Below are positions 24,655-25,222 of a stretch of DNA of 64,000 nt, in pieces. The position numbers were made by a program, and so were the translations under genes. Below the pieces are notes generated by a model. It did not search any database and had not been told where the DNA came from. It saw only the letters and a list, made by a program, of their open reading frames with translations. This DNA is from Candidatus Doudnabacteria bacterium (GTDB taxonomy: Bacteria; Patescibacteriota; Doudnabacteria; UBA920). The stretch lies in contig JARLHZ010000004.1 in assembly GCA_031291995.1 (NCBI GenBank), forward strand, positions 5,272-69,271. Reading direction: 5' to 3'. Numbering within the stretch: the first letter of the stretch is position 1; every line of letters begins with the position of its first letter.

Positions 24655-24689
24655 AATCGCGAATATACAAATTTTAAATAATATACGAA
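24655..24689. repeat. left arm of the inverted repeat bracketing the GxxExxY gene
   Basis: aatcgcgaatatacaaattttaaataatatacgaa. Its reverse complement matches 25187-25222. Confidence 0.7.
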
Positions 24690-24782
24690 ATAGTGTTCTG
24701 TAAGTTTTATAAATTAGAAATCTATATATTAAATAAATAACCATAATGAGGACCAAATATATGAGACCCGAAGCTGATTTAG

Positions 24783-25181
24783 ATGGCAGATCAAAACAAA
24801 ATAATCCATAAGGATCTCAGTTATAAAATTGTCGGTGTTGCTTTTAGATCTTTTAAGGCAACAGGATATGGAATGCCTGAAAAGTACTGTCAAGGTGTGT
24901 TCGCTGCCGAACTTGAGAAAGCTGGGTTGCACTTTAATCGGGAAGTTTATGTTACTTTAAATTATGAAGGTAAAGTTATCACAAAGTATTTTTTAGATTT
25001 TATTGTTGAAGATTCGGTGGTTGTGGAATTAAAAGTTCGGCCAAAAATCGGATATGCCCATATTGAACAAGTAATGGCATACCTTAAAGCAACGAATAAG
25101 AAATTAGCGATTTTAATCTATTTTACCCAAGAAGGTGTGAAATATCGGAGAATCGTTAATTCTTACAACAAACTACAATGA
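24783..25181 (+). CDS. GxxExxY-family protein (PD-(D/E)XK-like)
   Basis: DLSYKIVGVAFRSFKATGYGMPEKYCQGVFAAELEKAGL...FLDFIVEDSVVVELKV...IEQVMAYLKATNKKLAILIYF. Confidence 0.7.
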   Translation: MADQNKIIHKDLSYKIVGVAFRSFKATGYGMPEKYCQGVFAAELEKAGLHFNREVYVTLNYEGKVITKYFLDFIVEDSVVVELKVRPKIGYAHIEQVMAYLKATNKKLAILIYFTQEGVKYRRIVNSYNKLQ

Positions 25182-25186
25182 GCAGG

Positions 25187-25222
25187 TTCGTATATTAATT
25201 TTAAATTTGTATATTCGCGATT
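25187..25222. repeat. right arm of the inverted repeat bracketing the GxxExxY gene
   Basis: ttcgtatattaattttaaatttgtatattcgcgatt. Confidence 0.7.

Follow-up and report, generated by a model that had tools for sequence, protein, structure and literature searches.

A GxxExxY gene between inverted repeats in a Doudnabacteria T4SS operon: a probable copy of a mobile palindromic element

What is a small nuclease-like gene doing in the loop of a long hairpin between two conserved T4SS genes? The question is raised by a 64-kb stretch of DNA (hereafter the window, meaning the whole stretch analysed) on contig JARLHZ010000004.1 of a Candidatus Doudnabacteria (CPR/Patescibacteria) metagenome-assembled genome, in which the initial annotation had described an inverted repeat enclosing a GxxExxY gene and its AT-rich leader. 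We believe that this feature is probably one copy of a mobile, palindromic, selfish Doudnabacteria element, which carries a cognate nuclease gene and is transcribed with the operon around it.

Layout of the cassette and its cargo protein

The cassette lies between the PrgI and VirB4-N coding genes, and not within a 16S or 23S rRNA gene; an Rfam scan of the whole window at gathering thresholds returned three tRNAs only, with no rRNA and with no intron or riboswitch at the cassette. Its parts and neighbours are the following.

24201..24653, + strand: upstream host gene, a PrgI-family T4SS protein of 150 aa (PF12666, 50.2 bits), whose stop codon falls within the left arm
24651..25226, + strand: whole element, 576 nt, its limits given by the terminal inverted repeats TAATAATCGCG...CGCGATTACTA
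24650..24689, no strand assigned: left arm (left terminal inverted repeat), ATAATAATCGCGAATATACAAATTTTAAATAATATACGAA, with the PrgI stop codon TAA (24651-24653) inside
24662..24672, + strand: left-arm sub-repeat 1, AATATACAAAT
24680..24690, + strand: left-arm sub-repeat 2, AATATACGAAA
24690..24782, + strand: AT-rich leader, 93 nt, found in the window copy only
24783..25181, + strand: cargo gene for a 132-aa GxxExxY / PD-(D/E)XK protein, co-directional with the operon
25187..25227, no strand assigned: right arm (right terminal inverted repeat), which ends on the first two bases, A and T, of the VirB4-N start codon (25226-25228)
25187-25196: right-arm inner sub-repeat, TTCGTATATT
25205..25215, - strand: right-arm outer sub-repeat, ATTTGTATATT, the reverse complement of AATATACAAAT
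25226..25909, + strand: downstream host gene, an N-terminal VirB4-like ORF of 227 aa (N-terminus MKLEMQNK...)

The inverted repeat was found where the initial annotation had placed it, and a gapped alignment extended it slightly, to 24650-24689 against 25187-25227, with 38 matches in 41 columns. It is near-perfect, as had been claimed, and the arms of 35 and 36 nt originally given differ by one mismatch and one 1-nt indel rather than by two mismatches. The repeat scored 64, compared with 19.8 ± 2.7 (maximum 34) when this AT-rich junction was simulated 1000 times under a first-order Markov model, and its outer 20-mer occurs in the 64-kb window at these two sites only, with up to 3 mismatches allowed (expected, 0.04). 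When the RNA of 24640-25240 is folded, the arms close the whole cassette (-149 kcal/mol, z = -6.35). In other words, the terminal inverted repeats can form a long stem with the ORF in its loop, as in rRNA intervening sequences (IVSs), which bears out the earlier description of a gene-in-loop cassette with its 93-nt leader; nor do the arms belong to some longer repeat that ignores the gene boundaries. Among mismatches between the arms on the sense strand, G.U was not more frequent than A.C, neither in the T4SS hairpins (43 versus 44) nor in the element family (22 versus 38), and the arms thus give no positive sign of selection maintaining an RNA stem on the sense transcript. A consensus scan of 23600-26200 for promoters and terminators placed the sense-strand arms no higher than shuffled sequences and found no terminator at the cassette.

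By alignment, each terminal repeat has the conserved 21-mer TAGTAATCGCGAATATACAAA on its outer side and carries the sub-repeat AATATACAAAT, an 11-mer that is present twice, 5-7 nt apart, in every arm of the family. The element starts with the stop codon of the upstream gene (TAG or TAA) and ends in ...CGATTACTA followed by TG at the downstream start codon; the VirB4-N N-terminus is unchanged in relatives that have no element. In relatives, the ATG of the cargo gene directly follows the inner end of the left arm (AATATACAAA), where the window reads ATA. The inner ends (...cgaa/ttcg...) had been put forward as a possible target-site feature of both this cassette and the neighbouring four-helix-bundle (4HB) cassette, but they do no more than close the second sub-repeat (AATATACGAA), and the arms of the 4HB cassette end differently; the informative ends of the element are, to judge from these alignments, the outer ones. 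The 4HB cassette itself (ORF 23749-24123) is real, and its arms belong to an unrelated family, in line with the proposal that the two cassettes are independent instances.

The identity of the cargo was confirmed by strong matches to the GxxExxY family TIGR04256 (96.6 bits, cut-off 35) and to PF13366 PDDEXK_3 (95 bits, cut-off 22). The protein has the PD-(D/E)XK catalytic residues D72, E82 and K84 (D ... E-x-K) on a restriction-endonuclease-like fold, and of its eponymous motif G30 and E33 are conserved, the window reading G-M-P-E-K-Y-C, with Cys in its clade at the final Tyr position. Comparison with Pfam and NCBIfam gave only PDDEXK_3 / GxxExxY, with no DDE, HUH or recombinase match, and a PDB sequence search with the family profile gave no match. 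The protein is the product of the only ORF in the element, in which neither a transposase nor an integrase was recognised. The folds nearest to that of the protein (Cas4, lambda exonuclease, Hjc and tRNA-splicing endonuclease) include both DNA and RNA enzymes; unlike the nucleases of the Cas4, lambda-exonuclease and Hjc types, the cargo is a minimal ~130-aa core with no Fe-S cluster module. The protein is under purifying selection (pS 0.73-0.89, saturated; pN 0.04-0.19). In a survey of the PD-(D/E)XK nucleases, GxxExxY/PDDEXK_3 is entered as “Unknown” (PMC3424549).

Occurrence at T4SS junctions and in the wider element family

We compared 80 syntenic Doudnabacteria T4SS loci, in which each junction is compact, holds an empty hairpin or holds a one-gene cassette with GxxExxY, four-helix-bundle or, once, GIY-YIG cargo. 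The PrgI/VirB4-N junction was compact (≤60 nt) in 48 loci, mid-size in 17 and cassette-size in 8, and the VirB4-N/VirB4-C junction was compact in 51, mid-size in 12 and cassette-size in 15. Judged by such occupancy across about 80 related genomes, the orf507/PrgI, PrgI/VirB4-N and VirB4-N/VirB4-C junctions are insertion hot-spots, which the initial annotation did not note. Between the same conserved neighbours, some close relatives have the nuclease gene and others lack it, and cargo at the same site is 23-47% identical to the window cargo, with VirB4-C at 84-92%. All of the ~28 junction cassettes with a recognisable cargo ORF are co-directional with the operon. The idea that a hairpin split an ancestral VirB4 was ruled out, as N and C ORFs occur in all 79 relatives and are separate even where stop and start codons overlap and no hairpin is present. 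An SD-like motif was found upstream of only 1 of the 50 window genes.

For a statistic on the association between gene and repeat, we used loci L001-L080, which were chosen regardless of repeats and are therefore an unbiased subset. Inverted repeats flank 12 of their 15 GxxExxY genes and 15 of their 16 4HB genes, compared with 14/592 ORFs of ≥200 aa and 1/623 ORFs of 100-199 aa (Fisher 9e-16 and 3e-21); an inner margin of 60 nt was applied here, as a margin of 10 nt underestimates the flanked fraction because ORFs run into the arms. The arrangement extends to six copies on non-CPR plasmids: the four with annotated neighbours all sit co-directionally between other genes, two copies have CACAGAG-unit inverted repeats (24/28 and 27/30) and one has an 11/11 inverted repeat.

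The closest homologues of the cargo, at about 69-76% amino acid identity, were found via protein sequence alone (P0002, 74%; P0006, 71%; P0007, 69%). Their flanks share the outer 21-nt terminus TAGTAATCGCGAATATACAAA with the window copy at 20-21/21 identity, and their three junctions are dihydroorotate dehydrogenase/CN-hydrolase, VirB4-N/VirB4-C and PrgI/VirB4-N. The same terminus occurs in 41 metagenome loci, mostly as ORF-less hairpins of 60-206 nt with several per contig, and the termini are common to these loci, to L023 and to L081-L083. The empty hairpins number 31, of which 27 are distinct (60-206 nt), and loaded copies between the same termini in other contigs measure 462-612 nt; one contig has three hairpin copies within 1.7 kb, two of them with loops that are near-identical by eye and the third inverted. 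Five more loaded copies, found by terminus pattern, all carry the same protein clade. Across 9 loaded copies, the outer 21 nt of the left arm show a mean pairwise identity of 94%, and termini are 92-94% identical compared with 64.5% for ORF DNA, figures to be read with the proviso that loci L084-L124 were picked by one terminus matching the pattern, making terminus conservation among them partly ascertainment; L081-L083 were selected by protein and are free of this bias. More distant GxxExxY clades have other arm families, for example with CGGAT/CAGAT/CGAAT-unit arms, and at L023 it is a GIY-YIG gene, not GxxExxY, that lies between the homologous left arm and outer right arm.

The copies fit their junctions closely, filling everything from the stop codon of one gene to the start codon of its co-directional successor. 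Where the flanking ORFs can be recognised, bases 1-3 of the terminus double in most copies as the stop codon of the upstream gene, and an outward ATG follows 0-3 nt beyond the other end. No target-site duplication was found in 40+ copies, whose limits fall on stop and start codons. Cargo and host operon are always read in the same direction, and beyond the arm the cargo has no room for upstream signals of its own. A full copy is two ~40-bp terminal inverted repeats and a single ~130-aa PD-(D/E)XK (GxxExxY) gene, nothing more, and the family includes many ORF-less derivatives of two arms and a short loop, which are MITE/REPIN-like. The arms are the conserved ends of a family with many copies, gene-less ones among them, a point missed in the initial annotation; these termini are under sequence-level constraint, and arms and cargo are seen to travel together between unrelated gene junctions. 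From this distribution of copies, it is likely that the feature is a mobile terminal-repeat cassette.

Competing explanations and a proposed mechanism

It is conceivable that the hairpins are primary, spreading independently or being maintained by the host, and that small selfish genes (GxxExxY, 4HB and GIY-YIG) home separately into loops whose arms are not their own. Several observations can be read in this way: empty hairpins are far more numerous than loaded ones, in L044 and L011 the same arms stand empty at one junction and hold a gene at the following one, L082 and L085 have a complete empty hairpin behind the ORF and an additional left arm ahead of it, and the L023 orthologous left arm and outer right arm hold a GIY-YIG gene. 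We nevertheless consider this explanation improbable, considering that 9 of the 10 loaded copies with a TAGTAATCGCGAATATACAAA-type terminus carry the same protein clade, at a minimum of at least 5 different junctions, and that other protein clades come with other arm families. The case for neutral landing-pad arms in L023 is further weakened by two details: the first GxxExxY ORF codons are kept after the left arm, and the GIY-YIG gene has its own GC-rich inverted repeat (GGCGTCATGCTGA.../...TCAGGATGACGCC), so that the locus looks like a nested insertion with deletion and not like alternative cargo. In addition, nuclease-driven homing into empty cognate hairpins gives the same pattern, and fits a mobile element with its own nuclease too. 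We find it distinctly improbable that the hairpin is instead kept by the host, as operon “punctuation” or as a translational-coupling device with the enclosed gene an incidental passenger, whether as a site of RNA processing from which short-leader mRNAs arise in an SD-less organism, or as a stem coupling termination at the PrgI stop to initiation at the VirB4-N start. Stop and start codons do lie opposite each other at the stem base, many window genes start 2-7 nt past a hairpin arm, an SD motif precedes only 1/50 window genes, and hairpins occupy four consecutive T4SS junctions in the window. However, at the same sites the junctions of most relatives are compact (0-25 nt) and hairpin-free, with identical protein termini, and the hairpin is therefore dispensable; identical element termini also occur at unrelated loci, and conservation of the terminus as sequence and not as mere pairing, with no G.U excess, misfits a purely structural RNA role.

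The position of the arms, with an end 0-3 nt before an ATG in most copies, could further suggest that each arm is an outward promoter (TTTGTA / TATATT-like boxes in the sub-repeats) that yields a leaderless transcript of the adjacent gene. ATTTGTATATT does occur twice per arm, about 17-18 nt apart, and a consensus TGCTATAAT located 9 nt before the PrgI ATG makes short-leader promoters plausible here. Yet the consensus scan gave no promoter on the + strand of the right arm, the regional count of promoter-like sequences does not exceed shuffles (11 versus 7.0 ± 2.9), and, the arms being palindromic, transcription from the left arm would run antisense into the upstream gene; we regard a mobile promoter as very unlikely. 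A chance repeat or an assembly artefact, to which AT-rich sequence from a metagenome-assembled genome might give rise, can be practically dismissed in view of the simulated scores given above and of independent assemblies from many samples that show the same architecture.

For the preferred reading, a mobile element with its own nuclease, we propose the following course of events. The element would be transcribed as part of the T4SS operon, and pairing of its arms would give an RNA stem of ~40 bp, at whose base the PrgI stop lies opposite the VirB4-N start. By analogy with 23S rRNA intervening sequences, RNase III may well cut this stem; the message of the cargo would then be released and both flanking cistrons left whole, with a very short leader on the downstream cistron. 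As Shine-Dalgarno sequences are almost unused in this organism, it could translate such an mRNA. We put processing of the RNA hairpin, which rests on this analogy, at about an even chance. The GxxExxY nuclease, in turn, would recognise the sub-repeats of its own termini and promote the spread of copies with and without cargo, through transposition or through homing into related hairpins by cut and repair; that the putative nuclease is the mobility factor is plausible, at somewhat below even odds. More tentatively, and with considerable doubt, GxxExxY proteins might be the mobility nucleases of an unrecognised class of bacterial palindromic elements, PD-(D/E)XK-driven and following a REPIN/RAYT-like logic, whose termini double as stop codon and start-codon context, so that the element sits seamlessly between cistrons and is cut as an RNA hairpin from the operon transcript. 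If this were true, rRNA intervening sequences and the 4HB and GIY-YIG cassettes would be one kind of element in different hosts and targets, and the gene-less hairpins would be operon punctuation in Shine-Dalgarno-less CPR bacteria.

Relation to known systems and significance

Among known systems, REPIN-RAYT (reportedly treated by Nunvar 2010 and by Bertels & Rainey 2011) resembles the window element in having a gene between inverted copies of a repeat that is also dispersed intergenically as hairpin-forming doublets, and in the pairing of each gene clade with its own repeat family, as found here. In contrast, the gene of the window element is not an IS200/IS605-type Y1 (HUH) transposase, its arms are longer (about 40 nt), built from sub-repeats and devoid of a GTAG/CGTC tag, and its family can have several loaded copies in one genome region. 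The Correia/NEMIS elements of Neisseria are MITEs that are co-transcribed with genes, form RNA hairpins in operon transcripts that are reported RNase III substrates, have a TA target duplication and carry no cargo gene. The window family likewise consists of short TIR-bounded palindromic intergenic repeats that fold into RNA hairpins, but it has no visible duplication and a fraction of its copies carries a nuclease gene. With conserved terminal inverted repeats on many dispersed copies it agrees with the definition of a MITE, except that the autonomous copy has no recognised transposase. The seg/mob genes of T-even phages are free-standing homing endonuclease genes between conserved genes, and the small nuclease genes described here (PD-(D/E)XK, and GIY-YIG in L023) are similarly co-directional between conserved neighbours, with presence/absence polymorphism; we know of no phage homing endonuclease gene with long bounding inverted repeats or ORF-less hairpin cognates. 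An integron cassette has a promoterless ORF and a single 3' attC recombination site, with IntI and attI nearby. Such a gene cassette was ruled out here by the symmetric inverted repeat on both sides of the ORF and by the finding of no integrase among the scanned neighbours.

The initial annotation's comparison with rRNA intervening sequences held up in both architecture and size. The Coxiella IVS is 428-444 nt long, with a 28-bp terminal stem that RNase III cuts mid-stem and an ORF in the loop (PMC4990558). As in the 23S rRNA IVSs of Coxiella burnetii and Leptospira (S23p / PF05635 cargo), the window element is an insert of a few hundred nt with a terminal-repeat stem (28-40 bp), has one small loop ORF that reads with the host transcript, is sporadic and horizontally scattered, and is tolerated where the host RNA can be interrupted (PMC4990558); the neighbouring window cassette carries exactly the S23p / PF05635 family. 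It differs in lying between protein-coding genes and not in an rRNA helix, in its PD-(D/E)XK cargo, in its numerous ORF-less cognates and in its ends, which are stop and start codons. The initial annotation's view that GxxExxY proteins are typical rRNA-IVS cargo found no support in the accessible part of a systematic survey of CPR rRNA insertions, which gives their ORFs as 23S_rRNA_IVP, GIY-YIG and LAGLIDADG; in that part of its text and supplement the term PDDEXK is absent (PMC11270868). Our literature search for GxxExxY, PDDEXK_3 and CPR palindromic repeats found such cassettes undescribed and the GxxExxY literature almost nil, and the “23S rRNA IVS protein” four-helix-bundle family (PF05635) is described as functionally uncharacterised.

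In this locus and roughly 120 relatives, the GxxExxY and PF05635 families are overwhelmingly hairpin-loop cargo, and for GxxExxY the hairpin terminus and the protein clade move together, with the same termini abundant as gene-less hairpins. This provides an uncharacterised family with a genomic context and makes its “unknown function” a question that can be put to experiment. A further suggestion is that rRNA intervening sequences represent one instance within a broader class of insertions, which are tolerated at any point where a transcript can be broken. The locus and its relatives also show how reduced, SD-less CPR genomes fit selfish DNA at stop/start junctions while leaving their operons unbroken.

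The GxxExxY cassette at the PrgI/VirB4-N junction

The initial annotation described a near-perfect inverted repeat (IR) around a GxxExxY gene, and such a repeat is indeed present at that position, with the correction that the arms, as originally delimited, differ by 1 mismatch and one 1-nt indel and not by 2 mismatches. Gapped alignment of the whole PrgI/VirB4-N intergenic region gave two arms with 38 identities in 41 columns. The arms and the neighbouring ORFs are arranged as follows:

24650-24689: left arm
24783-25181: GxxExxY ORF, 132 aa; TIGR04256 'GxxExxY', 96.6 bits (cut-off 35); PF13366 PDDEXK_3, 95 bits (cut-off 22)
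25187-25227: right arm
25226-25909: VirB4 N-terminal ORF, 227 aa
26033-27880: VirB4 C-terminal ORF, 615 aa

This IR scores 64, whereas 1000 Markov simulations of that AT-rich region gave 19.8 ± 2.7 and no value above 34. The outer 20-mer occurs in the 64-kb window at these two arms only, even with ≤3 mismatches permitted (expected 0.04). When 24640-25240 is folded as RNA, the two arms close the structure (-149 kcal/mol, z = -6.35). The arms are not part of a longer repeat unrelated to the gene, and homology to the GxxExxY HMM is clear. The reading as a cassette with an architecture like that of rRNA intervening sequences (IVSs) also held, whereas the target feature proposed with it (inner ends cgaa/ttcg) is not the relevant one.

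What matters is the position relative to the flanking genes. The left arm contains the PrgI stop codon (24651-24653), the right arm ends with the first two bases, A and T, of the VirB4-N start codon (25226-25228), and in the predicted RNA fold this stop lies opposite this start at the stem base. Relatives with compact junctions have the same N-terminus of VirB4-N (MKLEMQNK...) and the same C-terminus of PrgI, so the element fills the spacer exactly and alters neither protein. The same holds for most copies with recognisable flanking ORFs: one terminus opens with TAG/TAA, which is the upstream stop codon, and the opposite terminus stops 0-3 nt short of an outward-reading ATG. No target-site duplication was seen at element copies. 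The elements fit stop/start junctions exactly and always share the direction of the operon: the cargo ORF reads with it in all ~28 junction cassettes that have a recognisable ORF.

Hairpins and cargo genes in the T4SS locus

The window GxxExxY protein matches a protein of a Candidatus Doudnabacteria MAG at 100% identity. A VirB4-C protein scan of species-representative genomes yielded 80 syntenic loci, nearly all from Doudnabacteria or other Patescibacteria (many recorded as 'Saccharibacteria'), across which the order orf507 - PrgI - VirB4-N - VirB4-C is kept. VirB4 consists of two ORFs in all 79 related loci, including distant relatives with overlapping stop/start; the split is therefore ancestral and not a disruption, which rules out that the hairpin between the halves in the window caused it. 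Junction gaps were classed as compact (≤60 nt), mid-size (61-350 nt) or cassette (400-620 nt).

Table. Junction gaps in the syntenic loci (compact; mid-size; cassette)
orf507/PrgI: 10; 15; 6
PrgI/VirB4-N: 48; 17; 8
VirB4-N/VirB4-C: 51; 12; 15, plus one larger (1495 nt)

The three junctions are insertion hot-spots. Most cassette-size gaps hold an IR whose outer ends lie at most a few bases from the upstream stop and the downstream start, and a loop of 345-445 nt with one ORF of 94-140 aa; many mid-size gaps have like arms and a short loop, i.e., are empty hairpins. The cargo is GxxExxY, a four-helix-bundle protein (4HB; TIGR02436 / PF05635, '23S rRNA IVS protein' family) or, in locus L023, GIY-YIG. 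GxxExxY cargo at the same junction in other genomes is 23-47% identical to the window protein, versus 84-92% for VirB4-C, and these cargos are therefore not orthologues by descent. Counting IR-flanked genes (score ≥30) in the 80 loci, which were selected on T4SS synteny alone, gave a strong association with both families (Fisher test against ORFs ≥200 aa: 9e-16 for GxxExxY, 3e-21 for 4HB); in the whole 1.5-Mb set, 19/26 GxxExxY and 19/22 4HB genes are IR-flanked.

Table. IR-flanked genes in the 80 syntenic loci
GxxExxY genes: 12/15
4HB genes: 15/16
ORFs ≥200 aa: 14/592
ORFs 100-199 aa: 1/623

Other repeats and genes were noted in the window:

23749-24123: 4HB gene (TIGR02436/PF05635) in the loop of a 44-58-nt IR (span 23700-24181), whose arms, CAAATTA-like heptamer runs, fill the orf507/PrgI junction
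25913-26041, 27879-28036, 10094-10203: CAAATTA-type arms again, gene-less
2077-2159, 61659-61733, 58980-59067, 60878-60946: further gene-less intergenic hairpins with periodic arms, two of them near-identical (TACGAAG/TACGAAC units) and ~59 kb apart
22323-22384, 22669-22751, 22878-22995: 7-nt-period repeats (GACAGCG/GACAGCA; CAAATTA/CAAATTT) resembling hairpin arms, within ORF 22173-23696; also in ORF 19964-21520
14480-14539, 15307-15365, 15713-15772: a perfect palindrome of 40 nt, TTGGTAGACAAAACG(T/C)GCGGCCGCACGTTTTGTCTACCAA, in three copies that bracket ORF 14718-15251, which matches PaaX_M / Cas2-like domains (PF20803, 67.6 bits)
51703-52059 (-): second 4HB gene (PF05635, 90 bits; weak bAvd match), flanking IR weak (score 23)

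The gene-less periodic hairpins also include an AATTAGG-unit family, and several stop 2-7 nt before a start codon. The repeats inside long ORFs are translated in frame (e.g., QITNNKFQISNGGQGQIPNEKL), which suggests that arm-like repeats invade coding sequence too.

Termini and cargo as one unit

Protein sequence alone was used to pick the three nearest homologues that had usable contigs:

P0002: 74% identity, locus L081, between a dihydroorotate-dehydrogenase gene (opposite strand) and a CN-hydrolase gene; not T4SS-related
P0006: 71% identity, locus L083, VirB4-N/VirB4-C
P0007: 69% identity, locus L082, PrgI/VirB4-N

All three copies, like that of the window, are bounded by the outer terminus TAGTAATCGCGAATATACAAA (20-21/21 identity on both sides), and arms in this family consist of the outer 11 nt plus two AATATACAAAT copies at 5-7 nt spacing. 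Searching metagenomes with a slightly relaxed version of the 21-mer found 41 loci. Most of these have two convergent copies of the terminus, separated by 60-206 nt with no ORF between them (31 empty hairpins, 27 distinct); on the 13-kb contig L111, three copies lie in 1.7 kb, two with loops near-identical by eye and one inverted. Five loci have the pair 462-599 nt apart, and each holds a GxxExxY gene of the same clade, 52-72% identical to the window protein. More distant clades have other arms, such as the periodic CGGAT / CAGAT / CGAAT units of the 'GRFAKEKQY' clade. In other words, the element is defined by its termini, is dispersed and exists both loaded and empty, and its cargo is linked to its termini. 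The cargo ATG follows the left arm's inner end without a gap (AATATACAAA and then ATG) in L081, L082, L083 and the terminus-scan locus L085; the window reads ATA there and has 93 additional AT-rich bases (24690-24782) before the ATG aligned with the relatives' start, a leader in which we found no repeat structure and no convincing promoter. Two loci (L082, 2963-3574; L085, 1882-2480) show a compound order of left arm, GxxExxY ORF and complete empty hairpin (163-174 nt), and in L085 the first left-arm bases of the trailing hairpin supply the ORF's stop codon, as they do for upstream host genes.

Across nine loaded copies, the outer 21 nt average 94% identity at the left terminus and 92% at the right, values for which pattern-found copies are biased towards conserved termini, while the three protein-found copies are unbiased and give the same result; ORF DNA in these nine copies is 64.5% identical and the protein 59.5%. 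As judged from this comparison, the termini are kept by sequence-specific constraint or homogenisation, beyond the mere need for pairing. Synonymous differences in the cargo ORF are saturated (pS 0.73-0.89) and non-synonymous ones low (pN 0.04-0.19), and the GxxExxY protein is therefore under purifying selection.

L023, among the closest relatives (VirB4-C identity 92%), has at PrgI/VirB4-N the homologous left arm and outer right arm around a GIY-YIG gene (PF01541, 59 bits), which could be taken as evidence that arms are cargo-neutral. This is disfavoured by the apparent first codons of a GxxExxY ORF that remain after the left arm (ATGGATAACAGT...), and by the GIY-YIG gene having, at 6645-7115, its own GC-richer inverted repeat (GGCGTCAT(C/G)CTGA...), similar to one in the orf507/PrgI gap. 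We therefore read L023 as a probable nested insertion with deletion. The GIY-YIG gene with its own IR may be a third cassette type, capable of inserting into the GxxExxY cassette.

Possible mechanism and wider occurrence

Because there is no room for a promoter of its own, the element would be transcribed with the operon, and its arms would pair as a ~40-bp RNA stem. IVSs of 23S rRNA have the same size and architecture, and RNase III cuts them mid-stem (PMC4990558); by analogy, the cassette stem is probably cleaved likewise. The cargo mRNA would thereby be released, PrgI would keep its stop codon, and VirB4-N would retain its start behind a short leader. This outcome is plausible here, since an SD-like motif precedes just 1 of the 50 genes with large ORFs in the window. 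In addition, 24184-24192 matches the extended -10 consensus (TGCTATAAT) 9 nt upstream of the PrgI ATG, and the two observations hint that genes may be expressed from leaderless or short-leader transcripts. Coupling is an alternative compatible with cleavage, in which a ribosome terminating at the stem-base stop would melt the helix and expose the facing start codon. Two points count against a purely RNA-structural role: arm mismatches show no sense-strand G.U excess, and conservation of the termini extends to their sequence and is not limited to pairing. The constraint on the sub-repeat termini, their clade-specific pairing with the protein and the nuclease fold of that protein point to a GxxExxY protein that may bind the termini of its own element and promote spread. 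This could proceed by homing, in which a cognate empty hairpin is broken and then repaired with a loaded copy as template, or by a transposition-like reaction.

A survey of the PD-(D/E)XK superfamily gives the function of PDDEXK_3 as 'Unknown' (PMC3424549), and our literature search on the GxxExxY name returned scarce mentions, none concerning its biology. The idea of the IVS as a mobile element whose ORF serves mobility comes from Ralph & McClelland, as cited in a passage of PMC4990558. A survey of CPR rRNA insertions reports 23S_rRNA_IVP and GIY-YIG ORFs in non-intron insertions, along with many short insertions that have no ORF, and does not list PDDEXK_3 (PMC11270868); no description of operon-junction hairpin cassettes in CPR was found in the literature searched. 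The element behaves as a blend of rRNA IVS, REPIN-RAYT and MITE/transposon but departs from each in a defining feature, as it lies outside rRNA, has no Y1 transposase, and, unlike a classical MITE or transposon, has no visible target-site duplication and no recognised transposase.

Outside CPR, we sampled six GxxExxY genes from plasmids and megaplasmids of other phyla. Neighbours are annotated for four of them, and in each case the GxxExxY gene sits between other genes that read in its direction. Repeats at these genes include:

Bacteroides finegoldii plasmid (L129), 1428-1899: 27/30 IR, CACAGAGGA units
Bernardetia (L127), 1448-1898: 24/28 IR, CACAGAGA units
Treponema: 11/11 IR (ACACGGATTCG)
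Fusobacteria: direct repeat with ATCCGTGT inside
Gemmatirosa: three CGCGGAT units, downstream

The first two genes are among those placed co-directionally between others, and their IRs are 28-30 nt long with CACAGAG(G)A units. On this small sample of six, neither the pattern nor the CACGGAT-like sub-repeat known from one clade seems confined to CPR. Two large orphan protein families, GxxExxY and 4HB, are associated family-wide with putatively mobile palindromic hairpins, and the locus is an entry to this association; the mechanism proposed here is inferential.
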